Source: an uncultured Peptococcaceae bacterium (GTDB taxonomy: Bacteria; Bacillota; Peptococcia; Peptococcales; Peptococcaceae). From it: a stretch of DNA of 64,000 bases. Below the pieces are notes generated by a model. It did no database searches, was not told where the DNA came from, and saw nothing but the letters and a program-made list of their open reading frames with translations. Position 1 is the stretch's first letter; every line of letters begins with the position of its first letter. The DNA is taken from positions 63,433 to 127,432 of the forward strand of contig CAMYDW010000001.1 of assembly GCA_947254645.1 (NCBI GenBank). Reading direction: 5' to 3'. Both the position numbers and the translations under genes were made by a program. Positions 1-34,056 of the stretch are shown here, piece by piece.

Positions 1-63
1 AAAAAAACACTTCGACTTACCAAACAGAGTATGCTATAGTGAATATATCTTAAAGGAGGCGAT

Positions 64-279: not shown

Positions 280-403
280 TCCTAGCCGCTCATTGAGGCG
301 ATATTGAGATGAATTTGAAGAAATCAGATTAAAGTATCAAATCCCAAGGGTATATAGTATAATAAGATCAGTTAAAATCATCAGAATCTAGGAGGACAAT
401 AAG

Positions 404-712
404 ATGTCAATTGTTAAAGTAACCAAAGAAAATTTTGGTGCAGAAGTTATTAATAGTGATAAACCAGTATTGGTTGATTTTTGGGCAGAATGGTGTGGCC
501 CTTGCCGTATGGTAGGCCCAATTCTTGAAGAAATCGCTCAAGAACGCCCTGATATTAAAGTTTGCAAAATCAATGTAGACGAAGAACGTGAATTGGCTGG
601 ACAATTTCAAGTGATGAGCATTCCTACTTTAATCGCATTTAAAGATGGCAAAATTGCGAACCAAACCGTTGGTGTATTACCAAAACCACAAATCTTGGAA
701 ATGCTCCAATAA
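404..712 (+). CDS. trxA: Thioredoxin
   Basis: WAEWCGPC active-site motif, 102 aa, RBS AGGAGG 8 nt upstream. Confidence 0.95.
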   Translation: MSIVKVTKENFGAEVINSDKPVLVDFWAEWCGPCRMVGPILEEIAQERPDIKVCKINVDEERELAGQFQVMSIPTLIAFKDGKIANQTVGVLPKPQILEMLQ

Positions 713-726
713 TTAAATACGAAATC

Positions 727-762
727 AAAAATACCATGCATGATGTGCATGGTATTTTTTTT
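727..762. terminator. Bidirectional rho-independent terminator between trxA and tag
   Basis: Hairpin ACCATGCA-TGATG-TGCATGGT flanked by an A-run and a T-run. Confidence 0.7.
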
Positions 763-1321
763 ATTTTCCAGCATAACAATGGCAATGAGGCTCGTGGCCG
801 TTGATGATGCCGATTGCTTGCAAATAGGAGTAGATGGTGATACTGCCGACAAAAGACATGCCTCGTTTTTTGAGGTCTTTTGAGATGGTATCTGAGAGTG
901 GTGAGGTTGTTTTTCCAGTCTCATAACATACAGTATCCTTTGTCCAATGCCATAAATACTTTGCAAAAGAGCCCCATTCTTCTTGAATGGCGAGAAAAAC
1001 ACGGGCGTTTTTGGTGGCAGCTTGTATTTTTCCCTTATGACGGATAATGCCTGCATTGTCTGTCAAGGCTTGGTGTTTTTTAGCATCGTAGTGGGCAATT
1101 TTAGTGGCGTTAAAATCATCGAAGGCCTCGCGAAAAGCGGTGCGTTTATTGAGCACACATTCCCAAGAGAGCCCCGATTGAAAGGTTTCTAAGAGTAATA
1201 TCTCAAATAATAAGTGGTCGTCATAGACAGGCACACCCCATTCAGTATCATGATAGGCCACATATGCCTTGTTGTTAAGATTTACCCAAGCACAGCGCGT
1301 CTTGTGAGAAGGGGACATCAT
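761..1321 (-). CDS. tag: DNA-3-methyladenine glycosylase I
   Basis: Strong Tag-family similarity (HDTEWGVPVYDD, C-terminal HxxxCxC zinc site). Start placed at ATGATG at 1321 behind RBS AAAGGAGGTG; the longer ORF to 1405 is an unsupported extension. Confidence 0.9.
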   Translation of the reverse strand: MMSPSHKTRCAWVNLNNKAYVAYHDTEWGVPVYDDHLLFEILLLETFQSGLSWECVLNKRTAFREAFDDFNATKIAHYDAKKHQALTDNAGIIRHKGKIQAATKNARVFLAIQEEWGSFAKYLWHWTKDTVCYETGKTTSPLSDTISKDLKKRGMSFVGSITIYSYLQAIGIINGHEPHCHCYAGK

Positions 1322-1426
1322 ACAACACCTCCTTTTTTCAGTAGTATAGCACAAAAAAAGAAGAAGCCTCGCGGCTTCTTCAATGTGTGGAAAATATAGA
1401 AGCATACATCTTGCGATGTAGACCTA

Positions 1427-3001
1427 CTACAGTACGACAGCAGTGATATAGGAGAAAGCACAAACGATGATACCGAAAAGCACACAGTATTTCGCTGTTT
1501 TCGCCATGATTTGACCATCTGCCCCTTCAAGACCAATTGCTGCGATAGCAACTGCAATACTTTGTGGAGAAATCAATTTCCCGATTGCCCCACCAGCCAT
1601 GTTTGCAGCGACCAATTGTACTGGGTCTGCGCCAAGAATGCCTGCCACTTCTGCTTGCATTTGTGCAAAAATAATACCAGAAGAGGTGGTAGAACCAGTA
1701 ACGAAGGTCCCAATAATCCCAACAAGTGGTGCAAGAGCAGGATACGCACTGCCTGTTAAATCAGCAAGTAAGGTTGCGATGGAAGAAGTCATGCCACTGT
1801 AGCCCATGACCTTTGCCATTGCCACGATGAAAACGATGGTGACGATGGCTTTCCACATGCCCTTAATTGTTTTAACGAGGACTTTGCCAAGGGTGCCAAC
1901 AGAAGCGCCTTGGAATAGCCCACCAATCACGCCAGCAATAAAGATGAGCAAGGCACCATTGATGTAAGCCAGCTTAATCATCCCTGGATTTTCGCCAGAA
2001 TATACAGTGATTTTTGAAACAAACTGGCCAGCCCAAGCATTGATGCCAGGAACAAGCTTAGAGGTAGCGATGATGAGAACGAGCATTAAAATGTATGGGA
2101 GCCATGCAGTCACATAGCCAAATTTGATGTTTGCCAATTCTTTTTCTTCTTCGTTGGACATTTCCATGATGTAGGCTGGGTCTTCAGTTGGTTTACGTTT
2201 CATAGCAACGAGTACCATCACAATCAAGCTGACGGTACAACCGATGATGTCTACGGTTTCAGCGCCTACATAGTGGCCAACGAGCCATGCAGGAATGACA
2301 TAAGAAAGACCAGCAAGTGCAGTAAAGCCCATCATGCCTTTGAAGGCACCGCTTGCATTTTCAGTTTTTCCAGTCAATGCAACAATGATGAATGGGCTAA
2401 GCAAAGCAGGGATTGCCAACATGTTGATAGCTGGGCCTGCAATGACCAATGGGTCTACGCCAACAAGGGTCGCTGCCGTGGTAGTAGGAATCCCGATAGA
2501 ACCAAAGGTAGGTGGTGCAGCATTTGCCACCAGACAAGCAACAGCAGAGAAAAGTGGATTGAAGCCAAGAGCAACCATCATTGCAGCAGGAATTGCCACT
2601 GCAGTACCGAAGCCTGCAACCCCTTCCATGAAGCCACCAAAGCCCCATGCAAGAATAAGAACCAAGACACGCTTGTCATTGGTAACGGAAGTCAACATCT
2701 TCTTGATGAGATCCATTGCCTTGGTTTCAACACAAAGGTTGTAAGTGAACATAGCAGCGATAATGATGAGACCGATTGGCCAGATGGCTGCAATCGCCCC
2801 TTCTAATGAAGCGGTGAGTGATTCCCCAACCGTCAAGCCAGACAACGTTTCGCTGATGCCTGCGGATTTAAAAATAATACTCTCTACAATAGAAATAACA
2901 AGTGCGATGAGACATCCGATGTAACCAGGCATCTTTAATACCAAGAATGCGACAAAAAGCCAAATAATCGGAAGTAAAGCCAAAATAAAATCTAATACCA
3001 T
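1427..3001 (-). CDS. lctP: L-lactate permease (LctP family)
   Basis: 524 aa polytopic membrane protein with LctP-family sequence character; RBS AAGGAGGGGG before start. Confidence 0.85.
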   Translation of the reverse strand: MVLDFILALLPIIWLFVAFLVLKMPGYIGCLIALVISIVESIIFKSAGISETLSGLTVGESLTASLEGAIAAIWPIGLIIIAAMFTYNLCVETKAMDLIKKMLTSVTNDKRVLVLILAWGFGGFMEGVAGFGTAVAIPAAMMVALGFNPLFSAVACLVANAAPPTFGSIGIPTTTAATLVGVDPLVIAGPAINMLAIPALLSPFIIVALTGKTENASGAFKGMMGFTALAGLSYVIPAWLVGHYVGAETVDIIGCTVSLIVMVLVAMKRKPTEDPAYIMEMSNEEEKELANIKFGYVTAWLPYILMLVLIIATSKLVPGINAWAGQFVSKITVYSGENPGMIKLAYINGALLIFIAGVIGGLFQGASVGTLGKVLVKTIKGMWKAIVTIVFIVAMAKVMGYSGMTSSIATLLADLTGSAYPALAPLVGIIGTFVTGSTTSSGIIFAQMQAEVAGILGADPVQLVAANMAGGAIGKLISPQSIAVAIAAIGLEGADGQIMAKTAKYCVLFGIIVCAFSYITAVVL

Positions 3002-3035
3002 AAAATCCCCCTCCTTAAATTTTTTAAAAGTGTCA

Positions 3036-3232
3036 GACCAATTTTAAAGGGATGAAAATAATGTGAGATAATATCGAGAATCCATGTGCCTTATTTTTAA
3101 TCAGATTAAAAGGCGCAATAAAATTGGTCAGTAGACAGAAATGGGATTGTTTAAATTTTCTGTCTTTAATAGTATTAAACACTGTCATAAAAAATATGTC
3201 AATATAAAAGGCGATAAAATGGTTGACCAATT
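3036..3232. promoter_or_regulatory. Three copies of GACCAATT (3036-3043 direct, 3122-3129 inverted, 3225-3232 direct, the last within AATGGTTGACCAATT) in the lctP / GntR divergent intergenic region; FadR/LldR-type TGGT-N-ACCA operators
   Basis: Repeats read directly from the sequence; LldR/PdhR-type FadR-subfamily regulators bind AATTGGT-N3-ACCAATT-like sites. Confidence 0.55.
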
Positions 3233-3301
3233 CATAATGATGTCTTATATTACTAATTATTCTATGATAAAATATGAGCCGACACGTGAGGAGGAAGACA
3301 A

Positions 3302-3991
3302 GTGACAAGAGAACAAAAGAATGATTATGAAAAACTCATTGACTATGTAGAAGAGCAGCTGGTGGGTAACCAATTAAAAATTGGGGATAAGCTTCCTGCT
3401 GAGCGTGAGCTTTCTGCAATGCTCTCTATTAGCAGAAACTCCGTACGCACAGGTCTATCTGTCCTTGAAGCCATAGGCGTTATCAACAATAAACATGGAA
3501 GTGGCAATTATATCAATGGTGCCTATGATTATAAGCTGACCCAAGTAATGATGATGATGTATGCATTGGATGATATTACCAATCGTGAAGTCAGTGGTTT
3601 GCGCTATGCAGCAGAATTACAGGCGATTATGCTGGCGCCACAAAATATCACAGAACGACAAAAAAGTCTGCTGATGAATTACCTCGATATTATGGAAAAT
3701 AGTCATAGCATGGAGGAACAGACCCATTGCGACAAAATGATTCACCAGACAATTGTAGAAGCCAGTGGCAATCGCTTGATTATTGCCAATTATATGGCCC
3801 TCAATCGTATCTTAGACACTGTCATTGGGGAGGTGCGTCGCAAGGTAAGTAAACAGCCAGCATCCACTTTTGAGGAGTTTCAATTTACGCACCGCCAATT
3901 GGTAGAGTTTGTTTGCCAAGGGGATTATGAAAAAGCCAAAGAGGCCCTTGATAAGCATCTCGAATACATGCTGGCAGAAATTAATACCTAA
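3302..3991 (+). CDS. GntR/FadR-family transcriptional regulator (HTH plus FCD domain), LldR-like, divergent from lctP
   Basis: N-terminal GntR HTH (LPAERELSAMLSISRNSVRTGLSVLEAIGVI) with an all-helical C-terminal domain; GTG start 7 nt after GAGGAGG. Confidence 0.8.
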   Translation: MTREQKNDYEKLIDYVEEQLVGNQLKIGDKLPAERELSAMLSISRNSVRTGLSVLEAIGVINNKHGSGNYINGAYDYKLTQVMMMMYALDDITNREVSGLRYAAELQAIMLAPQNITERQKSLLMNYLDIMENSHSMEEQTHCDKMIHQTIVEASGNRLIIANYMALNRILDTVIGEVRRKVSKQPASTFEEFQFTHRQLVEFVCQGDYEKAKEALDKHLEYMLAEINT

Positions 3992-4080
3992 TGGCTATGA
4001 AAATAGATGGTTTTTCTTTCAAAGATGGGTATAGATAGAGTAAAGGCGCTAGGCCATTTGAGAGAAAGAAGGCTATTGTT

Positions 4081-4626
4081 TTGACAACTATCTATGATTA
4101 TTCAGTGTCGCAAGCAGATGGGACCAGTTTGTCCCTAGAAAGCTTGAAAGGCAAAGTTTTACTTATTGTGAATACTGCCACAGGCTGTGGCTTCACCCCT
4201 CAGTATGAACAGCTTGAAGCCATGTATGAGTCCTATCACGAACAAGGCTTGGAGATTATTGATATTCCTTGTAACCAGTTTGCAGGTCAAGCCCCAGGGA
4301 CCGATACAGAAATTCGTCAATTTTGTTTACTGAAATATCAGACCCAATTTCCACAAATGAAAAAGTCCGATGTGAATGGGGAAAATGCCCTCCCTCTTTA
4401 TGCGTATTTGAAAAGTCAGCAAGGGTTTCAATCCTTGGGTAAAGGATTGAAGGCTTTTTTGATGCGTGGCTTGCTTAAGAAGCAGGACAAAAATTATCGC
4501 GACAATCCTGACATCAAATGGAACTTCACCAAGTTTGTTGTGGATCGACAAGGCAAGGTGGTTGCTCGTTTTGAACCCACGCAGGATATGGCAGCCTTGG
4601 AAGCTTGCGTAAAGTCGTTGCTTTAA
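4081..4626 (+). CDS. Glutathione peroxidase
   Basis: GPx motifs NTATGCGFTPQY and NQFAGQAPG; TTG start. Confidence 0.9.
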   Translation: MTTIYDYSVSQADGTSLSLESLKGKVLLIVNTATGCGFTPQYEQLEAMYESYHEQGLEIIDIPCNQFAGQAPGTDTEIRQFCLLKYQTQFPQMKKSDVNGENALPLYAYLKSQQGFQSLGKGLKAFLMRGLLKKQDKNYRDNPDIKWNFTKFVVDRQGKVVARFEPTQDMAALEACVKSLL

Positions 4627-4633
4627 AAGAAAA

Positions 4634-4680
4634 ACCTCCGTTAAATTCATTTTACAACGAATTTAACGGAGGTTTTTTTT
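4634..4680. terminator. Bidirectional terminator (gpx / DMT transporter)
   Basis: CCTCCGTTAAATTC ... GAATTTAACGGAGG hairpin followed by a T-run. Confidence 0.7.
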
Positions 4681-4690
4681 CTTTGTCGTA

Positions 4691-5608
4691 CTATTTGGAG
4701 TCAGTTGCTAGGCAACTGGTGTTTTTTTGATGGATTTTTTTCTGTAAAGTCAGTGGCTTTTTCTCGAGATATTTTGAGAGAAGAATACTCCCGATAATAA
4801 GAATGGCCCCGAGGATGCCACTCATGGTGATGGTTGTCCCCATGAACAGGGCATCGAGCAGCATAATAACCATGGGTGGAATGGCACAAAGTAGCCCGAC
4901 TCTATCAGCCGTGGTGTAGCGTTGTGCCACTGGCTGAAGGGTGAACCCTAGGATGGTACAAAAGATAACGAGAACGACCACGACACTCCATAATTGAGGA
5001 GTGGCAGGCAATTGAGGTTCTTCAAACAAAAAGGCAAGTGGCAAGGCGAAAAGACCTGTAAAGCCATTTTGTAAGATACCGAGAAGCACAGTGTCATCCT
5101 CTTTGGCAAAGCGATCTGTCAAAAGGATGATGAGTGCTAGAAAAATAGCTGCTAGTAAGGTGACCCACTCTCCTATCCCAAGGGTGAGAGCACCATCCTT
5201 CAGCGTCAACAAACCGATGCCCGCCATGGCCATAAGAGCACAGAAAAGAGCGCTCATATTTGGACGTTTTTTTGTGGTGAAAACAGCGAACAACGGAATA
5301 AGTACAATCGCAGTGCTCTCTAGGAAACAACTGCTGGACGAAGAAATGGTTTTTAAACCAACCAATTCTAAAAACATCATTGTAAAACAAATGCCCCCTA
5401 AGAGCATCCCGTGGAATAATGTGCGTCGATTTAAACGGCGCATTCTTTTATGAAAAATAAGCGCCATTGGCAGGAATGCAAGCAAAAAACGTAGGGATAA
5501 TAAAGTCAATGGTGCTATTTCCGAAATACCTAATTTATTAAATAAAAAAGATGAAGCACGAAGAAGCAGTGCCGTGAAAACCAAAAGTTCTGCGTGTTGT
5601 CTACTCAT
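4691..5608 (-). CDS. DMT-superfamily (EamA-like) transporter
   Basis: 305 aa, about 10 TM segments, duplicated EamA-like halves; RBS AAAGGGGG. Confidence 0.75.
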   Translation of the reverse strand: MSRQHAELLVFTALLLRASSFLFNKLGISEIAPLTLLSLRFLLAFLPMALIFHKRMRRLNRRTLFHGMLLGGICFTMMFLELVGLKTISSSSSCFLESTAIVLIPLFAVFTTKKRPNMSALFCALMAMAGIGLLTLKDGALTLGIGEWVTLLAAIFLALIILLTDRFAKEDDTVLLGILQNGFTGLFALPLAFLFEEPQLPATPQLWSVVVVLVIFCTILGFTLQPVAQRYTTADRVGLLCAIPPMVIMLLDALFMGTTITMSGILGAILIIGSILLSKYLEKKPLTLQKKIHQKNTSCLATDSK

Positions 5609-5716
5609 TTTTACGCCCCCTTTAAAGCATTGTCTTTAGTATAAATTTGGAGTAGAATTGAGTAAAGCGACAGATAATCAAGGTTGATGTGATAAAAGGT
5701 CATAACAGGTGATAAA

Positions 5717-6583
5717 ATGGATACAGAAAAATGTAAAGCGTTGTTAATGGTATTGGAAAAAGGCAATTTGTCCGAGGCTGCAGAGATGTTAGGCTATACC
5801 CCTTCTGGTATGAGCCGTATGATGGCGGCCATGGAAAGAGAAAGTGGTGTTTCTCTGTTGGTCCGTACACGCCACGGGGTGCATGCAACAGCAGAATGCA
5901 AAAAATTATTACCGACTATTAGAGAACTGGCTAAATTGGGTGAAGTCTATGACCGAGAATGTGAGGAAATAAGTGGCTTATTTGTGGGGACGGTGCGGAT
6001 TGCATCGGCTTATGCAAGCTTTTTGCCAGCGATTTCTCTTGCCATTCATGCCTTTACCAAAGATTATCCAGGGGTTAAAATTGAAGCACAGGAGCATTTT
6101 AGTACGGTGCTATTAGAGCGTCTCTCACGCCGTGAGCTGGACATTTGTATTGTCAGTAAACGAGAGGGTGATTTTGACTGGCTGCCCTTAACAGATGATG
6201 ATATGCTGGTGTGGGTGCCCATGAGCTACGAAACCCATGGGGAAGAGGTCTATCCAATTAAGCGTTTTGAAACAGATGCCTTTATAGACATCTGTCCAGG
6301 CAATGAAAGTGATAATGCATTGGTTTTTGAACAATATGGTATCCATCCAAATGCCAAGTATTCTGCACTCACTACCTTTTCGGCGCATGCCCTTGTGGAG
6401 GCTGGCATTGGCGTGACGATGACCAATGGTATTGACGGACAGAATTGGGGCGGCAACGTGAAAACCCTTCGACCTTCTCCACGGATTGTGATTCCAATCG
6501 GGATAGCAAGTCAGCGACAAGAAGAAATGACCCCTGCTGCAAAAAGATTTTTAAGCTATGTACGTGATTATTTAAAGGTCTGA
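5717..6583 (+). CDS. LysR-family transcriptional regulator
   Basis: N-terminal LysR HTH (LSEAAEMLGYTPSGMSRMMAAME) and C-terminal substrate-binding domain; divergent from the DMT transporter. Confidence 0.85.
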   Translation: MDTEKCKALLMVLEKGNLSEAAEMLGYTPSGMSRMMAAMERESGVSLLVRTRHGVHATAECKKLLPTIRELAKLGEVYDRECEEISGLFVGTVRIASAYASFLPAISLAIHAFTKDYPGVKIEAQEHFSTVLLERLSRRELDICIVSKREGDFDWLPLTDDDMLVWVPMSYETHGEEVYPIKRFETDAFIDICPGNESDNALVFEQYGIHPNAKYSALTTFSAHALVEAGIGVTMTNGIDGQNWGGNVKTLRPSPRIVIPIGIASQRQEEMTPAAKRFLSYVRDYLKV

Positions 6584-6611
6584 AGTATATTTAAAAAGAA
6601 AGGTGATTGAT

Positions 6612-7271
6612 GTGACATCCCTCAAGGCTTTGCCTGGCGTTAAAAGATGTTATTTTAAAAAGGGTGACTATCTCATTCGTATGGGCCAACGTATTGACTA
6701 TGTGTACTATCTTGAGAAAGGCCATGTCCACCGTGAAATGGTCAACGAAAATGGAGCCCGTACCTTTTTATCCCAGAAAATCGGTGGACAGTCTATTCAA
6801 TCGATTGTAGGCTTGCTCTCTCTTTATGACGAGCAAGGAAGAGATTTTGCGGATAATGATTTCATTGCCGCAACAGATTGTGTGTGTTATCGTATTCCCT
6901 CTGAAGCATGCAAGGAATTTTTTTTATGCCATCCCAAGCTTTTAGAAAAAGTGGTGTGTACAGCAGTGGCTGTTTCCAACGAGGTGCGACGTGTTTATTT
7001 AACAAAAACAGAGGTGCCTGCTTATGTGCATCTTTGCCAGCTGATTCTCCAGAGCTTGGTGGAGGATGAAACAGACTTGATTTTGCCAAAAGTTTTTACA
7101 AATATTGAAATTGCCAAAAGAGTGACCGCACACAAGGTGACGGTTTCAAGAATGCTAAGGGTATTGCGAGAGGAAGGCGTGATTGAAAAGACGCCAAAGG
7201 GATATCGCATTCTAGATATGGCGGCGTTACAGGCTTACGCCAATGGAAAAAAACGTTTGGTTTATCATTAA
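6612..7271 (+). CDS. Crp/Fnr-family transcriptional regulator (cNMP-binding-like domain plus C-terminal HTH), paralog 1
   Basis: C-terminal HTH IAKRVTAHKVTVSRMLRVLREEGVI; no Fnr-type N-terminal Cys cluster; start may be GTG 6603 or 6612. Confidence 0.75.
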   Translation: MTSLKALPGVKRCYFKKGDYLIRMGQRIDYVYYLEKGHVHREMVNENGARTFLSQKIGGQSIQSIVGLLSLYDEQGRDFADNDFIAATDCVCYRIPSEACKEFFLCHPKLLEKVVCTAVAVSNEVRRVYLTKTEVPAYVHLCQLILQSLVEDETDLILPKVFTNIEIAKRVTAHKVTVSRMLRVLREEGVIEKTPKGYRILDMAALQAYANGKKRLVYH

Positions 7272-7392
7272 TAAGAAAAAAAGACTTTTGAAATTTTTTC
7301 CAAAAGTCTTTTTTTATAAAAAAACACTCTTCAAATTAAGAGCAAATCGTGTTAATCTTTAGAACGGTTAAATGAACCTGTAGGAGGTAAAG

Positions 7393-8700
7393 GTGAAAAA
7401 ACTAGTCGTTTTAATACTAATGGTGGGGCTATTAATGCCAAGCCAATATATCGCTGCTGATGAACTCATGGATTTGACACACAAGGCAGGCTACAAAGAT
7501 GCCAAAATGATCAATAGACCAAAGTCGTCAATTGTTATTGATGGTAAAACAGGGGATATTCTTTGGCAGGACAACGTGGATGAAATTCGAGATCCTGCAA
7601 GTATGAGTAAGGTTTTGGCGCTCTACTTGGTTTTTGAAGCAATGGCAGAGGGCAAATTCTCGCCAGATACCATTGTCACAGCCACGCCGGAGGATCAGGC
7701 CATTGCAAAAATTCATAGAATTAGCAATAACAATATTGTTGCTGGTGTGAATTATACGGTGTCAGAATTGATTACAGCAGCGGTGGTGCCATCTTCCAAT
7801 GCAGCGACTTTAATGTTGGCGCGCTTGGTAGAAGAAGATCCAGACCTCTTTCTTGATAAGATGAATGCAAAAGCAAAAGAATTGGGCATGACCAATTCCC
7901 ATTTTTATAATGCCAGTGGTGCAATGGCATGGGCGTTTGATGGCTATTACAAGCCAAAACGCTATGATAATTATCGCAATAATGAAACCACTGCACGTGA
8001 TTATGCGATTTTAACCTATCATTTTCTCAAGGATTATCCAGATATTTTAAAATACAGTGGGGAGTCCACTGTAAAGATCAAGGAAGGGACTCCTTATGAG
8101 GAAAGCTTCGACTCCTATAATTATTCTTTGCCAAATGGCGAATATGGCATCAAAGGGGTAACAGGGCTTAAAACGGGGTCTAGTCCAACAGCGGCTTTCA
8201 ATTTGACTGCCACAGCGAAACGTGGCGAGCAAGAAATTATTGCCGTTATTATGGGTGTCGGGGATTGGTCAGACCAAGGTGGAGAATATTATCGTCACCC
8301 CTTTGCCAATGCCCTGATGGAAAAAGCCTTTGCCGATTATGATTATAAAAAGGTCATCGAAAAGGGTGTTCAACGTATTGGTGACAAAAAGGTCAATGCT
8401 CAAAAGGATGTATATGCAACCGTTTCTGTGGATAAAGCCCCACAAATGCTAGTGAAAGAGGAGCAGCTGGTGATTGACAATGGCTTGAAAAATGTTTCGC
8501 CAATGATCGAAAAAGAGCAACAAGCCATCCTCGACCATGACGTTAGTGTGTCCGATGAATCTGCCACTTCTGCTAAAAAATCAGGGGCCTCAGATCAAGG
8601 AGAGCATGTAAGGAATATTCTTATCACTGGTGGGCTGATTGTTTTGGTTTTTGCAGGTCTGGTAATCATGAATAAGCTGCGCCATTTATTCAAAAAATAA
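7393..8700 (+). CDS. Serine-type D-Ala-D-Ala carboxypeptidase (PBP5/DacA-like) with C-terminal membrane anchor
   Basis: Signal peptide, SMSK (SxxK) active-site motif, SxN and KTG elements, C-terminal TM helix. Confidence 0.85.
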   Translation: MKKLVVLILMVGLLMPSQYIAADELMDLTHKAGYKDAKMINRPKSSIVIDGKTGDILWQDNVDEIRDPASMSKVLALYLVFEAMAEGKFSPDTIVTATPEDQAIAKIHRISNNNIVAGVNYTVSELITAAVVPSSNAATLMLARLVEEDPDLFLDKMNAKAKELGMTNSHFYNASGAMAWAFDGYYKPKRYDNYRNNETTARDYAILTYHFLKDYPDILKYSGESTVKIKEGTPYEESFDSYNYSLPNGEYGIKGVTGLKTGSSPTAAFNLTATAKRGEQEIIAVIMGVGDWSDQGGEYYRHPFANALMEKAFADYDYKKVIEKGVQRIGDKKVNAQKDVYATVSVDKAPQMLVKEEQLVIDNGLKNVSPMIEKEQQAILDHDVSVSDESATSAKKSGASDQGEHVRNILITGGLIVLVFAGLVIMNKLRHLFKK

Positions 8701-8873
8701 TAACTTAGAAAGTGCGCGTTGTTTTATCTATAAATGTCAGTATGGATCATACTGGCATTTATTTTTTTGTTAAAAGAAAATAAAAAAGCGCAAAAAGATA
8801 ACGAATGTTATCATGAAAGTGACACTTAATATATAAAATTAAATTATGTTAAAAATAAGAAAAGGGGGAGAGC

Positions 8874-10283
8874 ATGATGTCTCAAAAAAACATTGTGGCA
8901 CTTGGGCGTACGAAGAATGAGCTGGTGAAGTTGTTCATCACTGTATTCTTGCCGCTATGCTTCTTTTTTGTGCCAGTCAATGACAGTTTTACACCACAAA
9001 TTCGTTTATTCTTTGTTATTACTTTAATTGCAATTATTTCATTTGCGACCGATTCATTGCCACAAATGGGGGTGGCGTTATCCTTACCAATCATTTATGT
9101 ATTGACGGGACTTGCACCAGGACAGGTTGCTTTTGCACCATGGCTTGGTAGCATTCCATGGATGATGATTGGTGGCTTAATGCTCGCTTTGGTGCTTGAA
9201 AAAACAGGGCTTTTAAAGCGTATTGCATTCCTTTGTATTTTAGCAACGGGTGCAAGCTACAAGGGTATTATTTGGGGAATCACCATTGCAGGCGTGATCA
9301 TCAATATCATGATTCCAGGGAAAGGCGTTATTCCAATGGCTGCCTTATCCTATGGGATTTGCAAAGCCCTTGATTTAAAACCTGGGAAAGCATCTGGCGG
9401 TATCACCCTCGCAGCAGCGATGGGGTCTATTATGCCAATTCTTTATCTCTTTGCACCAGGGGGCATCATGATTCCATTGGGCATTGGGGCTTCTGCTGGC
9501 GGACCAAAAACCGTTGGCTGGTTGGAAATATTTACCAATAACGTGCCAATGGTATTCTATACTGTTTTGATGGCTTTTGTTGTGACCTTGATGTTCAAAC
9601 CAGAAAAGCCAATCTCTGGGAAGGATTATTTTCAAAATGAACTCTCTGCCATGGGGAGTATGAGCTTTGATGAAAAGAAATCCTTGTTTGTTACATTGAT
9701 TTTGATTACCTTCTTGGCAACAGGCAAGCTGCATGGTATTGATGCTGGCTGGGGTTTTGCCTTTATTCCTTGCCTATTCTTCCTACCAGGGATGGACTTG
9801 GTAGAAAACAAGGATTTGCCAAAAATGAACTGGGGCTTTATCTTCTTTATCACTGCCTGCCTTTCTATTGGGAATGTTGCTGGGGCAATGGGTATTGGGA
9901 AGATGATTGCTGCTTGGGCATTGCCACTGCTTGAAGGTAGAAGCTTCTATGTATTTTATCTCTTTGTTTGGTTGTTATTCTTTGTGATGAACTTCTTGAT
10001 GACGCCATTGGCAATGTTGGCGGCCTTTACCCAGCCACTTACAGAAATTGCCATCAGCTTGAATATTAATCCAATGACGTTGTACTACGTTATTTTAAAT
10101 GGCGCAGACCAAATTCTTTTGCCATATGAATATGCGCTTTATCTGATTTTCTTCTCCTTTGGTATGGTGAGGGTATCAGACTTTGCGAAACTGATGAGTG
10201 TCAAGGTGGTTGTCAACTTTGCACTGGTCTTTGGCTTGTTAATCCCTTATTGGAATTTGATTGGGCTTATTCCAATGCCATAA
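8874..10283 (+). CDS. Ion-transporter-superfamily permease (YfcC/DcuC/AbgT-like), paralog A
   Basis: 469 aa polytopic protein with hairpin-loop-like motifs; paralogous to the ORF at 14698-16176. Confidence 0.6.
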   Translation: MMSQKNIVALGRTKNELVKLFITVFLPLCFFFVPVNDSFTPQIRLFFVITLIAIISFATDSLPQMGVALSLPIIYVLTGLAPGQVAFAPWLGSIPWMMIGGLMLALVLEKTGLLKRIAFLCILATGASYKGIIWGITIAGVIINIMIPGKGVIPMAALSYGICKALDLKPGKASGGITLAAAMGSIMPILYLFAPGGIMIPLGIGASAGGPKTVGWLEIFTNNVPMVFYTVLMAFVVTLMFKPEKPISGKDYFQNELSAMGSMSFDEKKSLFVTLILITFLATGKLHGIDAGWGFAFIPCLFFLPGMDLVENKDLPKMNWGFIFFITACLSIGNVAGAMGIGKMIAAWALPLLEGRSFYVFYLFVWLLFFVMNFLMTPLAMLAAFTQPLTEIAISLNINPMTLYYVILNGADQILLPYEYALYLIFFSFGMVRVSDFAKLMSVKVVVNFALVFGLLIPYWNLIGLIPMP

Positions 10284-10420
10284 TTTTCCCTAAAAAACAC
10301 CGTGTGTCAGGGAGCACACGGTGTTTTTTTTGCATAAATGACGGTAGTGGTTTATTTTAACATGGGGTTATGGTATGCTAACTATTGGCATTCAACAATC
10401 TAGCGCCAAAGGAGGATACA

Positions 10421-10786
10421 ATGAAACAGTCATCTCAAACCGTACAAGAGAAAATAGAAAAAAAGCGCCAATCAGAGGAAGCGATTGTGGCTCAAATGAT
10501 TGGGCTGTATTGTCATGGCAAAAAACATACTCAAGATGGAAGCTTGTGTGAGGACTGTCAACGGCTTTTGGACTACGCGCATACACGCATTGAACGCTGT
10601 CCCTTTATGGAAACAAAAACATTTTGTGCTTATTGTAAGGTGCACTGCTATAAGCCAGAAGCGAAAGAGCAGATTCGTCAAGTCATGGCTTATGCAGGAC
10701 CACGTATGCTTTTACGCCATCCTTGGATGACCTTGTATCATGCCTTGACAGGCTTGCGAGGAAAGCTCCTTGAGGAGGAAAAGTAA
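10421..10786 (+). CDS. YgbA-like nitrous-oxide-stimulated-promoter family Cys-rich protein
   Basis: CHGK ... CEDC ... CPF ... CAYCKVHCYKP cysteine pattern typical of this family; ATG at 10421 after AAGGAGG. Confidence 0.55.
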   Translation: MKQSSQTVQEKIEKKRQSEEAIVAQMIGLYCHGKKHTQDGSLCEDCQRLLDYAHTRIERCPFMETKTFCAYCKVHCYKPEAKEQIRQVMAYAGPRMLLRHPWMTLYHALTGLRGKLLEEEK

Positions 10787-10871: not shown

Positions 10872-10888
10872 AAAGTGTAGTCTGGACT
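10872..10888. promoter_or_regulatory. 17-bp motif AAAGTGTAGTCTGGACT (core inverted repeat AGTC-TG-GACT) about 25 bp upstream of a TATACT -10 box of the ASST gene
   Basis: Read directly; 16/17 identical to a motif at 14590-14606. Confidence 0.5.
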
Positions 10889-10975
10889 GTTGCTGTTAAA
10901 AAAAATCTTTTGCTATACTAAATATATAAATTGCACTAATGAAAATAATAAATGAGAAAATAACGGAGGTAAATA

Positions 10976-12865
10976 ATGGAAGCATTAAACTTTAAAAAAC
11001 AAGATCATATCATTACTGCTCAAAGAAAATCTGAAGAAGCTTTTTTAGCAGAATTTGAAGCAGGTAATTTTACCCTTACCAACCCTTTGGTAAAAATCAA
11101 CCCTTATTTGATTGCCCCACTCACTGCAATGGTGATGTTTGAAACCCCATCTGTATGTGAAGTGACTGTCATTGTTCATGGCAAAGAAGAAGCAGGGAAT
11201 ATCACCCACACTTTCCCAGCTGAAAAGAAACACGTATTGCCAATCTATGGTTTATATGCCAACTACAACAACCGTGTAGAAATCATCTTGTCTAACGGTG
11301 CACGTCATGATGTGATGATTGAGACCCCAGACTATGATGTAGAAGTGCCACAAGCAACTTCTTGCGAAACCACTCCAGAATACTTTGGCCAAAACATGAT
11401 GTTTGTAACCGCTTCTATTCGTTCTGTACCAGCTGGTTACGACTATAAAGGGGATGTACGTTGGTATTCTAACGTCAACCTTGCTTTTGACATCAAGCGT
11501 TTGAAAAATGGTCACATCCTTGTTGGGACTGAACGTCTTGTGAAGATGCCTTACTTCACCACTGGGTTGTATGAAATGGCATTCAGCGGTAAAGTCTTCA
11601 AGGAATATCAAATTCCATGCGGTGGTTATCACCATGACCAAATGCCAATGGAAGATGGCAACATTCTTTGCCTCACCTTTGATTTCTACTCTGGCACTGT
11701 TGAAGACGTTTGCGTATTGCTCGACAAAGAAACAGGCGAAATCCTCAAAAAATGGGATTACAAAAATGTATTGCCACAATTCCCAACTGCAGGCAGCGGC
11801 AGCCAAAACGAAGAAGACTGGTTCCATAACAACGCTGTTTGGTATGACAAAAAGACCAACTCTCTTTCCTTCTCTGGCCGTCACCAAGATGCCGTTATCA
11901 ACTTGGACTATGAAACTGGCGAATTAAACTGGATTCTTGGCGATCCAGAAGGTTGGCCACAAGAAATGGTAGACAAATACTTCTTTACCCCAGTAGGCGA
12001 TGGAGAATTTGACTGGCAATATGAACAACATGCTTGCATGATCTTGCCAGATGGCGATGTGTTCTTGTTTGACAACGGTCACTTCCGTGCGAAGAACCCA
12101 GACAACTACATCAAGAACAGTGAAAACTTCTCTCGTGGCGTACGTTATCGCATCAACACCGAAGACATGACCATCGAACAAGTATGGCAATATGGTAAAG
12201 AACGTGGTGCAGACTTCTTCTCTCCATACATCTGCAACGTTGAATATTATGATGAAGGCCATGTAATGGTTCACTCTGGTGGTATCGGTTATGAAGATGG
12301 CAAGACCTGCGAAGACTTTGCTGTTATGAAAGCCATGAAACCAGAATTCAAAGACCACATCACCTTCAATTCTATTACCTGTGAATTGGTCAATGATGAA
12401 TTGGTTTATGAACTTCAAGTGCCTGCAAACTGCTATCGTGCAGAAAAATTGCCATTGTACTATGCTGGTGAAGTGGCTGAACTCGGCGCAGGTAAAATCT
12501 TAGGTGAATTGATTGAAACCAAGACCACCAAGATGAAAATGAAAGCTGAAGAAACTGGAGAAATGATTCCAGATAGCTATGTTGTAAAAATCGTAGAAGA
12601 AGAAGACCGTGTATCCATTAACGCTATCTACGAAACAGGCGAAATGGCACAAATCCTTCTTATTGCAGAAAATGGTGACATCCGTCGTTATCCTGTAAAC
12701 ACCATTCCACAAGCATTTGCAGCAATGTGTGTAGGGACCTTCCAAAAAGAAGACCCACGCAATGTAGACGTATTCATCAATAAGAATGGTCTCGAAGGCA
12801 AATATGCTATCAAGATGCTTTGCGAAGACAAAATTTATGAAACAGGTGTTGTCATCAATCAATAA
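10976..12865 (+). CDS. Aryl-sulfate sulfotransferase (ASST family), no signal peptide
   Basis: 629 aa; ASST-family sequence character throughout; N-terminus hydrophilic with no signal sequence. Confidence 0.7.
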   Translation: MEALNFKKQDHIITAQRKSEEAFLAEFEAGNFTLTNPLVKINPYLIAPLTAMVMFETPSVCEVTVIVHGKEEAGNITHTFPAEKKHVLPIYGLYANYNNRVEIILSNGARHDVMIETPDYDVEVPQATSCETTPEYFGQNMMFVTASIRSVPAGYDYKGDVRWYSNVNLAFDIKRLKNGHILVGTERLVKMPYFTTGLYEMAFSGKVFKEYQIPCGGYHHDQMPMEDGNILCLTFDFYSGTVEDVCVLLDKETGEILKKWDYKNVLPQFPTAGSGSQNEEDWFHNNAVWYDKKTNSLSFSGRHQDAVINLDYETGELNWILGDPEGWPQEMVDKYFFTPVGDGEFDWQYEQHACMILPDGDVFLFDNGHFRAKNPDNYIKNSENFSRGVRYRINTEDMTIEQVWQYGKERGADFFSPYICNVEYYDEGHVMVHSGGIGYEDGKTCEDFAVMKAMKPEFKDHITFNSITCELVNDELVYELQVPANCYRAEKLPLYYAGEVAELGAGKILGELIETKTTKMKMKAEETGEMIPDSYVVKIVEEEDRVSINAIYETGEMAQILLIAENGDIRRYPVNTIPQAFAAMCVGTFQKEDPRNVDVFINKNGLEGKYAIKMLCEDKIYETGVVINQ

Positions 12866-12885
12866 TCACAATGTGATAACACTGA

Positions 12886-12925
12886 TGCTAAAAAAGAGCT
12901 GGTTGCTCAAGCAACCAGCTCTTTT
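12886..12925. terminator. Bidirectional terminator between ASST and the Crp/Fnr paralog 2 gene
   Basis: AAAAAAGAGCTGGTTGCTCAAGCAACCAGCTCTTTTGTT. Confidence 0.75.
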
Positions 12926-12935
12926 GTTGTACAAA

Positions 12936-13598
12936 TTATTTTTTGTAATGTAATTTTCTCTCTCCATGGGCATAGGTTTGAAGCAACGCTAAGTCGATGA
13001 TCAAAATCCCCTCGGGAATGCGTCGGAGACAGCCCTCATCTTCCAAAGCAATGATAACTTTGTTGACGGTGATACGATGCATCGCCAAAAATCTAGCGAT
13101 ATCTGTATTGGTATAGTGTCTGTGTAGGAGAAGCCCCTCATGCATTTCTTCTGCCTTGTCGATGATAAAGCTGGCAATACGAGGTGCCGCTTGTCCTTTT
13201 TGTTTTGCAAAGAAATTAGCAGCCAGATATTCATATTGACTAACTGCCATTTGCAATAGCTCAAACATAATAGAAGGATACTGGTGTAGAAAATCAATAA
13301 ATTCAGCATGTTGAATCTTGTAACAACGGCACTTTGTGGTAGTGACAAGACTATAAGTCATGAGGCGATTTTGAGTGATTGCAGCAAGTGAACCGAGGAA
13401 GGCACTCACAGAATCATCGCTGGTACGTTCATCCATGAAAATTTCTTCACCATTTGGGGTGTTACTCATGCGCATACAACTACCTTCTATTAAATAGTAC
13501 ACATAATCAATCTTATCATTACAATGATAAATCATTTCTCCTTTTTCAAAGGTCACGATGGGGAAATCCCTTAAATATTTAAAAAATTCCGGAGCCAT
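12936..13598 (-). CDS. Crp/Fnr-family transcriptional regulator, paralog 2
   Basis: Shares the DYVYYL and HTH architecture with the ORF at 6612-7271; start placed at MAPEFF (13598) behind RBS AAAGGG. Confidence 0.75.
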   Translation of the reverse strand: MAPEFFKYLRDFPIVTFEKGEMIYHCNDKIDYVYYLIEGSCMRMSNTPNGEEIFMDERTSDDSVSAFLGSLAAITQNRLMTYSLVTTTKCRCYKIQHAEFIDFLHQYPSIMFELLQMAVSQYEYLAANFFAKQKGQAAPRIASFIIDKAEEMHEGLLLHRHYTNTDIARFLAMHRITVNKVIIALEDEGCLRRIPEGILIIDLALLQTYAHGERKLHYKK

Positions 13599-13864
13599 AA
13601 GACCGCCCTTTCTTTTTTGCGATATGTTCATTCATATATTTTCAGTGTAACACAGATGAAATAAAAAGATAGCCCTATGTACGAGGAATCATATCAAGTA
13701 AAGTTCAAGAGGAGAATAGAAATTTTTTATGAATAACAAAGAATTGTATAGAGAGAAAATAGAGGAAAAGATGTGACTAAGACTTTTATTATCTTTATCC
13801 ATTGATATAATGGGTTGGGAAAAGAAAATCAAAATATATAACTCCAAGAAAGGTGTGGCTTGAA

Positions 13865-14539
13865 GTGGAACGTTTTCAGACGTCAGAGTCTATTCGATTG
13901 GGTATTGTTTTGGCGATGGCTGGTGGATTTATGGATGCTTATTCCTATATAGGGCGTGGTGGTGTCTTTGCCAATGCTGAAACTGGGAATATTGTGTTGC
14001 TTGCTGTGAGCTTGGGTGATGGACAATTTGGCATGGCGTTGCATTATCTTGCACCTATTATTGCTTTTGCAACAGGGGTATTGCTTTCTGAATGGGTGAA
14101 GCGCACCAAAAAAGGGTCGCTTTCGTTGTTTCATTGGCGTCAAATTGTTCTTATGTATGAAATGCTCTCCATGATTATGGTGGCGTTTTTGCCCCAAGAG
14201 TGGAATTTTTTGGCCAACTCATTGATTTCCTTGGCGTGCGGCATTCAAGTAACGACGTTTGCCAAAATTCATGGACATGGCATGGCCACGACGATGTGCA
14301 CAGGCAATTTGCGAACAGGGACTCAGTCTTTGAATAAATATTTTCAAACAAAGGATGCACGGCATTATAAGGATGCTGTTTTTTACTATGGTTGCATTGC
14401 TTGGTTTGTGATTGGTGCAATGATTGGCAATTTCTACACCCGTCAATGGCAAGAGATGGCGATTCTTGTGGTTGTTGGGCTGTTGGGTGTGGCGTATGTG
14501 ATGATGTTTTTTAACAAGGAAGCCAATAAAGATATGTAG
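13865..14539 (+). CDS. YoaK/DUF1275 (UPF0700) family membrane protein
   Basis: GGFMDAYSY motif and the 6-TM pattern typical of DUF1275; start probably GTG at 13865. Confidence 0.65.
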   Translation: MERFQTSESIRLGIVLAMAGGFMDAYSYIGRGGVFANAETGNIVLLAVSLGDGQFGMALHYLAPIIAFATGVLLSEWVKRTKKGSLSLFHWRQIVLMYEMLSMIMVAFLPQEWNFLANSLISLACGIQVTTFAKIHGHGMATTMCTGNLRTGTQSLNKYFQTKDARHYKDAVFYYGCIAWFVIGAMIGNFYTRQWQEMAILVVVGLLGVAYVMMFFNKEANKDM

Positions 14540-14589
14540 AAATCAATACCATAAGCAAGGGAAAAATGAAATAAATAAATAAAACTTAT

Positions 14590-14608
14590 AAAGTGAAGTC
14601 TGGACTTC
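14590..14608. promoter_or_regulatory. Motif AAAGTGAAGTCTGGACT containing the perfect palindrome GAAGTC-TG-GACTTC, about 20 bp upstream of a TATGAT -10 box of permease B
   Basis: Read directly; paralogous site at 10872-10888. Confidence 0.5.
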
Positions 14609-14697
14609 TCTTCATTGGGTTTTGGATATGATATAGTGCAGAAGAAAAGTCGAAGAAACGATGGCAATCGTTTGAAGGATGAAAAGGAGAAAGAAAA

Positions 14698-16176
14698 ATG
14701 GCAGAAAAGAAGAAAAAAGACCTGTATGCTATTCATGTGTGCATTGGCTTTGCAATCACTGCATTGTTTTGGTTGATGCCAGCGATTGAACCAATCACAC
14801 CCCTTGGTATGCGTTGTGTTGGTGCCTTTTTGGGCATGGTGTATATGTGGTCTACTGTTGACACACTCTGGCCAAGTTTATTAGGATTGTTCCTCTTTGG
14901 GATTTCCGGATTTGGTGGAGAAGGTGGCTTTAACGGCGTTTGGATGAATGCTGTTGGGGTCTACATGGTATTATTAACATTATTTGCAATGGTATTGTTT
15001 GGTGCAATGGATGAAGCTGGCGATACCAAATATATTGCAAAATGGTTTTTGACGAGAAAAGTCTTTAAGGGTCGTCCTTATGTCTTTATCGCTGTATTCT
15101 ATTTGACCTGCTTTGTACTCTCTGCAGTGGTAACCCCTATCACAGAACTTATTATTTTATGGCCAATCGCTTTGAGCTTGATGGCGACAATGGGTGTTAC
15201 AAGAGAAGATACTATTTGGAAATACTTCTTTGTTGGGATGTTCTTGGTGTCTACCTTGGCACAACCACTTTTCCCATTCATGGGTGCACAGCTTATTCCT
15301 TATGCAGCCTTCCAAAGTATGACCAAAACAATGGGCAATCCAATGACCATTCCAATGTTGCCATATATGTTGACCAATATTGTAATGACGACTTTGGTAA
15401 TGGCAGTATTCCTTTTGGCAATCAAATTCATCTGGCGTGCAGATGTAACGAAGTTGAAAGCCATTGACCCAGCACAAGTAGAAGCACAAATGCCACTACC
15501 TGCAATGAATCTTAAGCAAAAAGCGTATTTGGCAATGTTGCCTTCCTACTTGATCATGGTATTGGTACCAAGCTTCCTTAAAAACAATCCTGTTTCTGAT
15601 GCCTTGAATACCATTGGTGTTTTAGGGATCACCGTTGCATGGGTCATCTTGTTCTTGATGGTGCGCTTTGAAGGCAAGCCAATGCTCGACTTTAAAGAAG
15701 TGGCATACAAGCAATTTAACTGGGGCATTTTCTTCATGATTGCAGCAGCAGTATATGGGGCAAACAGCTTGTCCAACCCTACCACTGGTGTACCTGCATT
15801 CCTTATTCAAAGCTTGAAACCAATCTTAGGGGGCCGCAGTGAAATAGTATTTGTTGCCATTATGTTCACCGTGGCACTGATTATCACCAACTTTGCAAAC
15901 AATGCAGCAATGGCTGTTATTTTGATGCCAGTTGTATTGAACTTCTCAAACCAAATTGGTATCAATCCTATGCCTGTGGCAATGGGTGTTATCCTCATGG
16001 TATTCGTTGCAATGTTGACCCCTGCAGCATCTCCACACGCTGGTTTGATGCACGGGATGAAAACCATCTATACCACGAAAGAAATTCTCACCATCGGTTT
16101 CCCAATGTGTTTAGTAACCTTGTTGCTCTACATTTTTGTGGGTTACCCATTGGCAAAAATTTTACTCGGTGTTTAA
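14698..16176 (+). CDS. Ion-transporter-superfamily permease (YfcC/DcuC/AbgT-like), paralog B
   Basis: 492 aa polytopic; motif ITNFANNAAMAVILMPV resembles IT-superfamily hairpin motifs. Confidence 0.6.
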   Translation: MAEKKKKDLYAIHVCIGFAITALFWLMPAIEPITPLGMRCVGAFLGMVYMWSTVDTLWPSLLGLFLFGISGFGGEGGFNGVWMNAVGVYMVLLTLFAMVLFGAMDEAGDTKYIAKWFLTRKVFKGRPYVFIAVFYLTCFVLSAVVTPITELIILWPIALSLMATMGVTREDTIWKYFFVGMFLVSTLAQPLFPFMGAQLIPYAAFQSMTKTMGNPMTIPMLPYMLTNIVMTTLVMAVFLLAIKFIWRADVTKLKAIDPAQVEAQMPLPAMNLKQKAYLAMLPSYLIMVLVPSFLKNNPVSDALNTIGVLGITVAWVILFLMVRFEGKPMLDFKEVAYKQFNWGIFFMIAAAVYGANSLSNPTTGVPAFLIQSLKPILGGRSEIVFVAIMFTVALIITNFANNAAMAVILMPVVLNFSNQIGINPMPVAMGVILMVFVAMLTPAASPHAGLMHGMKTIYTTKEILTIGFPMCLVTLLLYIFVGYPLAKILLGV

Positions 16177-19721: not shown

Positions 19722-19912
19722 ACAAAAAAACTCCGAAATGACAGAATCATTCCAGAGCTTTTGCATACACTTATCCTAATACATCTTCTTCTATCCAGAC
19801 TATACTGTTGGTTTTGGAATTTCACCAAATCCTGATTTGAACCTATGCCAAATCCTGCGCAAGTGCGCTCGCGGACTTTACCGCCAATCGGGAATCTCAC
19901 CCTGCCCTGAAG
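19722..19912 (-). ncRNA. FMN riboswitch (RFN element) with terminator expression platform, leader of the rib operon
   Basis: Reverse complement reads AGGGCAGGGTGAGATTCCCGATTGGCGGTAAAGTCCGCGAGC ... GGTGAAATTCCAAAACCAACAGTATAGTCTGGATAGAAGAAG, then CTCTGGAATGATTCTGTCATTTCGGAG followed by a T7 terminator; promoter TTGACG-17-TATACT upstream. Confidence 0.9.
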
Positions 19913-20068
19913 ATACTATGAAATTGACTAAAGTATAATGAAAAAAAAGTGTGCCGTCAAGAGAGAAATCTTCTTTCAAAAAATGATTTATGGTATACTG
20001 TTTAGTAAATAACCGTTTTTGCCTTTGTATAAATCAATAAATTATACTATGCTTTTTATCATGAAAGG

Positions 20069-33769: not shown

Positions 33770-34056
33770 TCTTCTCCTAGTAAGATAATAAAAATTGTTG
33801 ATTGCTCAAAAAATATTTGCCTATGATATTTGTGAAATATGAAAAGAAGCCTCTGAAAAGGGATTACTTGTGTATTTCGCATGAAAAAATAAAAAATTCA
33901 TTTGCTTGACAACCGTCTTGTACGATGATAACATTCTGGTATCATATGACTGACGGATAATGTGGAGCACCACATGGAGTATGATAGATGATAAAAGCCG
34001 ACCGTCTGGGCGAAAAGCCCAGATAGTCGGCTTTTTTGTGTGAAAAAGGAGATGAA

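Follow-up and report, generated by a model that had tools for sequence, protein, structure and literature searches.

Two palindromic boxes at the sulfotransferase and permease promoters

The stretch of DNA analysed here (the window) is 64,000 nucleotides (nt) long and comes from an uncultured Peptococcaceae bacterium (contig CAMYDW010000001.1, positions 63,433 to 127,432); its subject of interest is a pair of closely similar palindromic boxes and the Crp/Fnr-family regulator gene that lies between them. Window genes were assigned using Pfam. The first of the two predicted target genes encodes an aryl-sulfate sulfotransferase (ASST) of the type that does not depend on 3'-phosphoadenosine 5'-phosphosulfate (PAPS); it is located at 10976–12865 on the plus strand and its 629-residue product (PF05935, E 8.9e-104, and PF17425) has no signal peptide visible at its N-terminus. 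It converges on the minus-strand gene of the regulator, here called Crp#2 (220 residues, 12936–13598; PF00027 and PF13545), which is the candidate binder of the boxes. The two genes are divided by a bidirectional terminator-like hairpin, assigned to neither strand, at 12890–12929, with the stem GAGCTGGTTGC/GCAACCAGCTC at 12896–12921, an A-tract on its 5′ side and TTTTGTTG on its 3′ side; it was read by eye and is not listed by a simple terminator scan. To the right follow a gene for a DUF1275 membrane protein (13853–14539, plus strand) and the second target gene, encoding the CitMHS-family permease B (492 residues, 14698–16176, plus strand; PF03600). Good Shine-Dalgarno sequences precede both the ASST and the permease B genes.

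An earlier note, made from the letters alone, had drawn attention to two 17-bp words, AAAGTGTAGTCTGGACT at 10872–10888 and AAAGTGAAGTCTGGACT at 14590–14606, differing at one base, and direct reading of the window bears out both the positions and the 16/17 identity. It had also seen no other copy in the 64 kb, and indeed a pattern allowing up to three mismatches on either strand matches these two sites only; AGTCNNGACT likewise has two matches in the window, both of them these sites, with two or more matches arising in 3 of 100 shuffles. The perfect palindrome GAAGTC-TG-GACTTC assigned to the second site is present, with arms at 14595–14600 and 14603–14608 around a TG centre, but it runs 2 nt beyond the 17-mer that was said to contain it. 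The predicted functional unit is described here as a 14-mer palindromic box and not as the 17-mer, with the two-fold symmetric 14-bp consensus G-W-A-G-Y-C-Y|R-G-R-C-T-W-C, or GWAGT-N4-ACTWC. The core of box 1, GTAGTCTGGACTGT (10877–10890, plus strand, centre 10883/10884), was read within the 17-mer at 10872–10888 and agrees with GWAGYCYRGRCTWC at 12 of 14 positions; that of box 2, GAAGTCTGGACTTC (14595–14608, plus strand, centre 14601/14602), overlaps the 17-mer at 14590–14606 and agrees at all 14. From box centre to start codon the distances are 92 nt for the ASST gene and 96 nt for permease B, and the upstream regions are unlike each other outside the 17-mer and the -10 element, so the two sites are not parts of a duplicated segment.

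A weight matrix trained only on sites outside the window, and then applied to it, gives site 2 a score of 18.0 and site 1 a score of 13.3, with 14.0 and 4.7 for their respective reverse-strand readings, and the next-best position, other than the two strands of both sites, scores 3.2. Neither the matrix nor the consensus scan finds further boxes in the window upstream of the genes for DASS permease A, the YgbA protein (both left of the ASST gene, see below), DUF1275 or Crp#2. Because no box lies upstream of Crp#2 in the window, autoregulation through the box is not indicated there; in the Peptococcaceae loci described below one box sits in the divergent spacer between regulator and permease.

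The promoters that follow the boxes share an architecture. The ASST promoter has an extended -10 element, TGCTATACT (10911–10919, plus strand), 23 nt to the 3′ side of box 1 and with no usable -35, and that of permease B has TGATATAGT (14629–14637, plus strand), again 23 nt beyond its box; transcription is predicted to start at about 10925–10927 and 14643–14645. The earlier note had placed -10 hexamers 20–25 bp after the sites. Its TATACT at site 1 stands, and its TATGAT at site 2 (14627–14632) is probably to be replaced by TGATATAGT, since this gives the same 23-nt spacer as at site 1 and in the orthologous promoters, while TATGAT gives 18 nt. A sigma-70 scan lists no -35/-10 pair at either window promoter. 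Orthologous ASST promoters have TG(C/T)TATACT 22–23 nt from the box, and when each distinct promoter-oriented site is counted once, 49 have a TAnnnT at 23 nt from the box and seven have it at 22 nt. The -10 matches TATAAT in at least five of six positions in 49/51 promoters and is TG-extended in 34/51, and the best -35 at 16–18 nt spacing reaches at most 3/6 in 48/51, which is no better than at random positions. Computed from the -10 and assuming the usual 5–7 nt to the start, the box centre lies at -41.5 to -43.5. A class II activator position, with the centre near -42, is thus the best reading of these predicted promoters, and the placement proposed earlier gains support from the spacer fixed at 22–23 nt, the strong -10 and the chance-level -35. 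We also note that most Peptococcaceae CitMHS and ASST promoters (e.g. L016, L019 and L015; L numbers are our locus identifiers) have the short conserved word (G)ATAAG, beginning 6–7 nt past the -10 hexamer, approximately at the predicted start site; both window promoters lack it.

Co-occurrence of the box and the regulator in related loci

With an alignment of Crp#2-family proteins as the query, each GTDB species, represented by a single genome, was searched for relatives of Crp#2; this recovered 11 loci, all in uncultured gut Peptococcaceae and none from the species of the window. A separate scan with the permease as query gave 15 metagenome loci with the box, as well as loci that lack the regulator; the permease was preferred to the box as query because a pattern of 14–16 bases would be expected to match about 1 Tb of metagenome sequence hundreds to thousands of times by chance. 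The box is kept in ten of the 11 GTDB Peptococcaceae species, the contig of the eleventh (L010) being too short to include the promoter, and is present in the GTDB loci L011–L020, in L021 and L023, and in the 15 metagenome loci. The phylogenetic footprinting that had been proposed as a check thus gives a clearly positive answer, with every ASST or CitMHS promoter that can be read in the regulator-positive loci carrying the box at the same distance from the -10. Locus L006, whose regulator is 45% identical to Crp#2, illustrates the pattern: the regulator gene is divergent from two CitMHS genes, with an ASST gene further on, and all three target promoters have the box (GTGAAGCCTAGACTAC, GTGAAGTCTAGACTAC and CTGTAGTCCAGACTAT). 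More generally, orthologous ASST promoters carry CTGTAGTCCAGACTA-type boxes in the same place and orthologous CitMHS promoters carry GTGAAGTCTAGACTAC-type boxes, in genes whose products are 72–76% identical to the window ASST and 71–78% identical to permease B, respectively. Each ASST or CitMHS promoter of the regulator-positive loci agrees with GWAGYCYRGRCTWC at 13–14 of 14 positions, compared with 12 and 14 for the window sites. The dispersed repeat element that the earlier note had named as a possible refutation is not seen: the window holds two copies, and among about 25 related loci the 14/14 matches are confined to ASST and CitMHS promoters.

The negative side of the comparison is provided by ten regulator-free loci (L030, L042, L043, L047, L049, L051, L053, L057, L063 and L064), the first eight of which came from the permease scan. 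Most have 8 kb of flank on either side; L030 and L042 have less on one of the two. Their ASST and CitMHS orthologs are 59–75% identical to those of the window, and none has a box, the best upstream match being at most 10/14, which is background. Two of them are ASST loci of named organisms, Desulfosporosinus meridiei (L063, CP003629) and a Desulfitobacterium contig (L064); the ASSTs of these two genera are about 70–74% identical to the window ASST. Three further loci (L050, L054 and L056) have the box on contigs that end before the position of the regulator, and are uninformative. Regulator gene and box are thus either jointly present or jointly absent, with no discordant locus.

Within the boxes, A at -5, G at -4, C at +4 and T at +5 are invariant. 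The variable half-site positions change independently and with no compensation: of 29 boxes, 17 are symmetric at position 3 and 12 at position 6. This pattern fits recognition by a protein dimer that tolerates imperfect half-sites and does not fit a selected hairpin.

Two side observations concern other promoters. In one Peptococcaceae species (L021, 4562–9758, and identically L019) the genes for a CitMHS permease, a 660-residue PF01663 protein and a DASS permease form an operon behind a box; PF01663 is the phosphodiesterase/alkaline-phosphatase superfamily. No ASST gene is present within 10 kb in this species, so the regulon would be wider than ASST. In L063 the ASST gene and a separate cluster (two LysR genes, CitMHS and a second ASST) share the upstream word AAAACCTATATTA(C/T), at 7856–7869 and 14692–14705, to which another regulator may bind.

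The candidate regulator and competing explanations

Crp#2 is, by sequence comparison, a member of a rare Crp/Fnr subfamily. It has 28 homologous clusters among 5.8 billion proteins, the closest besides its own sequence being 45% identical, and its homologs in gut Peptococcaceae and metagenome contigs are 40–45% identical. It consists of an N-terminal beta-roll of the cyclic nucleotide-binding type (PF00027, E 4.9e-13, above the curated cut-off; strands at residues 14–96 in the structural model), a long dimerisation helix at residues 108–133, and a C-terminal Crp-type winged helix-turn-helix (PF13545, E 2.6e-9; modelled helices 164–171 and 175–187, followed by a beta hairpin), which together form a canonical CRP fold in the AlphaFold model (mean predicted confidence, pLDDT, of 84). 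The best Foldseek neighbours are GlxR, Mycobacterium tuberculosis CRP and Escherichia coli CRP (E about 1e-16, TM-scores of 0.6–0.7, 17–21% identity), and a sequence search of the PDB is led by 7pza (E 2.5e-8), with at most 21% identity to any solved structure. A link to CprK or to another characterised subfamily was considered and rejected, because the PDB sequence and fold searches give only generic CRP, GlxR and NtcA matches at no more than 21% identity; no CprK chain is present among the PDB sequence matches at E values up to 1. The helix-turn-helix is nearly invariant in the subfamily (DIARFLGMHRITANKIILAL; Crp#2 has DIARFLAMHRITVNKVIIAL), as is the recognition helix MHRIT(A/V)NK, and the C-terminal tail RK(I/L)xYKK is conserved. 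Compared with the Peptococcaceae proteins, Crp#2 is 57% identical in the helix-turn-helix region and 32% identical in the sensor domain.

Residues of known function in CRP offer some indication of what the protein senses and reads. The earlier note had reported the lack of an Fnr-type cysteine cluster, and we agree: the CX2CX5C motif is absent and no cysteine is invariant among 25 subfamily members. In CRP structures Glu72, Arg82 and Ser83 contact cyclic AMP (cAMP), and a HMMER alignment to E. coli CRP places Ser, Met and Thr of Crp#2 at these positions. Since the cysteine cluster is missing and the cAMP contacts are replaced, an iron-sulfur cluster or cAMP is unlikely to be the signal, and the earlier suggestion of a small-molecule effector other than oxygen seems a reasonable one. 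CRP Arg180 is known from structural work to contact G at -7; every member of the subfamily has an arginine at the aligned position, and every box has G at -7. CRP Glu181 is replaced by Ile in Crp#2 and the box has A instead of G at -5, a plausible rationale for a new half-site.

The proposal of the earlier note that Crp#2, as the regulator encoded between the sites, is the candidate binder is strengthened by these comparisons, in which no other regulator gene comes and goes with the box, and it is likely that Crp#2 binds there. In the mechanism that we propose, the 14-bp box would be an operator recognised by a Crp#2 dimer; the box would take the place of the -35, and from this class II position Crp#2 would recruit RNA polymerase by direct contact. 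Binding of a small-molecule effector would lead it to turn on two monocistronic units, one for an ASST that would act in the cytoplasm and one for a CitMHS permease that probably imports an anionic aryl substrate. We speculate that the effector is related to aryl sulfates or phenols. Overall, we put the probability that the box is the operator through which Crp#2 switches on ASST and permease B from a class II position at about 0.8, as judged from sequence.

Several points weigh against this reading. First, site 1 is a weak copy: it matches at 12/14, and its matrix score of 13.3 falls inside the range of shuffle maxima. Secondly, 17-mers that recur in direct orientation with no more than one mismatch are common, with 20 independent pairs in the window compared to 3–9 in mononucleotide shuffles. 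As a 16/17 pair is therefore not rare by chance, the repeat was dropped as a statistical argument, and the case rests on position and comparative data and not on the repeat itself. Thirdly, the positive set was found in part by searching for the regulator, an ascertainment bias that is offset only partly by the permease-seeded scan, which is itself free of it. Fourthly, a -35 can be dispensed with at extended -10 promoters, and a repressor would therefore be served just as well by a box that covers the -35 region. Lastly, wherever a Peptococcaceae locus has an ASST, a conserved LysR gene lies co-directionally and directly 5′ of the ASST box, and in L019, L021 and L054 a CitMHS box is preceded by a second LysR type; LysR genes of these kinds are at L006 2102–2965, L023 1952–2815 and L021 3548–4492, with equivalents in L011–L020.

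The fourth of these points bears on the sign of control. The same protein could act at the same box as a repressor, blocking RNA polymerase over the -35 region until released by an inducer, and the box does overlap the expected seat of sigma region 4, in a set of promoters with the good and commonly TG-extended -10 elements counted above, which can work without a -35. However, a spacing held at 23 or 22 nt over more than 50 diverged promoters is expected of an activator that touches polymerase and is not needed for steric repression, and Crp/Fnr proteins centred at -41.5 (CRP, FNR, PrfA, CprK and NtcA) are activators. Repression is thus the one competing account that keeps an appreciable, if minor, share of the probability, and if Crp#2 binds the box then activation is the probable outcome.

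That a LysR-type regulator reads the box, rather than a Crp/Fnr protein, is improbable. The idea draws on the position of the conserved LysR gene, whose product is 71–93% identical among the Peptococcaceae loci, on the different LysR that precedes the CitMHS box in the three loci named above, and on LysR genes adjoining ASST or CitMHS genes in lineages without the Crp/Fnr regulator (L051 and L063). With only about 23% identity between them, the two LysR types contrast with a box that does not differ from locus to locus. Neither type has an ortholog in the window, where the sole nearby LysR gene (5717–6583, plus strand) encodes a protein just 24% identical and lies 4.4 kb away. No LysR gene adjoins the boxes that lie beside a Crp#2-type gene, and LysR-flanked ASST and CitMHS loci without a Crp#2-type gene have no box. 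The format of the box, a compact 5-N4-5 palindrome located in the -35 region, is that of Crp/Fnr sites. LysR is therefore a poor candidate for the shared box, though in the Peptococcaceae it may exert additional control.

Slightly less probable still is that the box is read by Crp#1, the second Crp/Fnr paralog of the window (6603–7271, plus strand), alone or together with Crp#2. Crp#1 is encoded 4 kb upstream and belongs, as a distant relative, to the same subfamily, with 27% identity and a similar C-terminal tail, but its recognition helix is AHKVTVSR as opposed to MHRIT(A/V)NK. The Peptococcaceae loci lack a separate gene for Crp#1, since all tblastn matches to it there (19–28% identity) overlap the gene of the Crp#2 family, and its orthologs co-occur with another palindrome, WTAAC-N4-GTTAT, 5′ of DASS permease genes. 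Finally, that the box is no protein operator at all, being a chance repeat, a dispersed element or a hairpin in RNA or DNA such as an upstream-gene terminator, is very improbable, for although 16/17 word pairs do arise by chance in 64 kb and box 2, 56 nt past the DUF1275 stop codon, could form a short hairpin, the two copies are both at promoters, with perfect matches elsewhere restricted as described, the arms are conserved yet vary independently, the site 1 arm is only 4 bp, and neither site is followed by a T-tract, listed by the terminator scan or matched by Rfam.

The palindrome associated with Crp#1 merits a brief description. In the window a perfect 16-bp palindrome, GATAACGAATGTTATC (8797–8812, with the core ATAAC-N4-GTTAT at 8798–8811), lies upstream of DASS permease A; it is a single copy and not significant alone. 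The metagenome contig L059, with the same gene order and a Crp#1 79% identical, has ATAAC-ATTT-GTTAT 5′ of the DASS gene (11245–11258), and L061, where a Crp#1 49% identical is encoded directly 5′ of the DASS gene, has TTAAC-GCTT-GTTAT (9767–9780); in both a TAAAAT hexamer follows 22 nt past the box. Control of the DASS permease by Crp#1 is a candidate second regulon, represented by three loci only, and the two paralogs seem to run two separate small regulons.

Setting of the module and comparison with known systems

To the left of the ASST promoter and to the right of Crp#1 are plus-strand genes for a D-Ala-D-Ala carboxypeptidase (7393–8700), DASS permease A, of the Na:sulfate-symporter family (8874–10283), and a YgbA_NO protein (10385–10786; PF11756, E 5.6e-41). 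The YgbA_NO gene, the nearest of the three to the ASST promoter, is outside the conserved module, and the spacer on its 5′ side contains a terminator-like hairpin at about 10300–10330 and no box. L059 shares the gene order of the left part of the window (1–10283), namely lactate permease, GntR, glutathione peroxidase, EamA, LysR, Crp#1, carboxypeptidase and DASS, and is probably from a sister species; the contig stops short of the ASST position. To the right of permease B a leftwards transcribed riboflavin operon begins at 16219 (Pfam), behind an FMN riboswitch (19779–19918, minus strand). The other elements above the Rfam gathering score are a T-box leader (30402–30616, plus strand) before a 635-residue open reading frame at 30670, a ZTP riboswitch (33936–34018, plus strand), a NiCo riboswitch (52427–52504, minus strand) and a tRNA (62793–62865, minus strand); FMN, T-box, ZTP and NiCo elements are typical of Firmicutes. 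Proteins identical to those of the window are present in a handful of metagenome assemblies and in one NCBI record. Horizontal transfer of the module was considered and gave no signal: the G+C content is 39–44% from ASST to permease, compared with a window average of 43%, and the ASST is about 70–75% identical across many clostridial lineages.

ASST and CitMHS genes are neighbours in several lineages irrespective of the regulator (L044–L046, L051 and L063), and this recurrent pairing suggests that the permease carries the anionic substrate of the enzyme. PAPS-independent ASSTs are widely used as biocatalysts, and in the gut they act on host- and drug-derived phenolic sulfates. Their physiological donors and acceptors and their cellular role are unknown (2026 review PMC13426309; 2025 preprint bioRxiv 10.1101/2025.07.07.663557). 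A literature search found nothing on the regulation of ASST or on a GWAGT-N4-ACTWC box. We suggest tentatively, and would sooner bet against it than for it, that the Crp#2 subfamily is a dedicated sensor of the natural ASST substrate, either an aryl sulfate donor or a phenolic acceptor imported by CitMHS. If this were true, the sensor, the box, the permeases and the cytoplasmic ASST would constitute an inducible cytoplasmic aryl-sulfate pathway in gut anaerobes, to which the module of some genomes would add a PF01663 phosphodiesterase-family enzyme and a DASS permease, and the ligand of the sensor would name the natural substrate of ASST. A regulator, a defined box and two clean target promoters would offer a practical route to such substrates. 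What is new here is the predicted subfamily, box and regulon; the Crp/Fnr class II scheme is known, and the mechanism is a textbook one with no new principle.

Comparison with characterised systems shows how closely this scheme is followed. The E. coli sites are TTGAT-N4-ATCAA for FNR and TGTGA-N6-TCACA for CRP, with a class II centre at -41.5. Crp#2 shares with both proteins the beta-roll sensor, the long dimer helix and the winged helix-turn-helix, and its boxes are, like their class II sites, symmetric and in place of a -35, with the 5-N4-5 format of FNR, and G at -7 and the Arg180 equivalent conserved. The differences are the half-site, which is GWAGT here, the lack of the cysteine cluster and of the cAMP residues in Crp#2, and scale, the E. 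coli regulons being global and the Crp#2 module small and local.

The best functional analogy is CprK of Desulfitobacterium, which recognises the dehalobox TTAAT-N4-ATTAA and has ortho-chlorophenol as its effector. As is proposed for Crp#2, this Crp/Fnr protein of a related clostridial lineage activates a local set of genes through a 14-bp 5-N4-5 box in class II position. The signal it senses is a phenolic compound, which is also what the genes under its control act on; a phenolic effector for Crp#2 is conjecture. The dehalobox differs from GWAGT-N4-ACTWC, and at the ASST loci examined in Desulfitobacterium and Desulfosporosinus both a Crp#2-type regulator and the box are missing.

In promoter layout the closest parallels are PrfA of Listeria, with its box TTAACA-NN-TGTTAA 22–23 bp from the -10, and cyanobacterial NtcA, with GTA-N8-TAC about 22 nt from TAN3T. 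As at the Crp#2 boxes, a 14-bp palindrome is followed at a near-fixed 22–23 nt by a good -10, with no -35; the boxes, effectors and biology are unrelated.

For the enzyme, the reference is AssT of E. coli CFT073 (PDB 3ELQ), of the same family as the window ASST (E 1.3e-28). E. coli AssT is a periplasmic enzyme, and DsbL/DsbI, a disulfide system dedicated to it, is expressed alongside (review PMC13426309). On the window ASST, by contrast, no signal peptide is visible, and its partners are permeases and a Crp/Fnr regulator.

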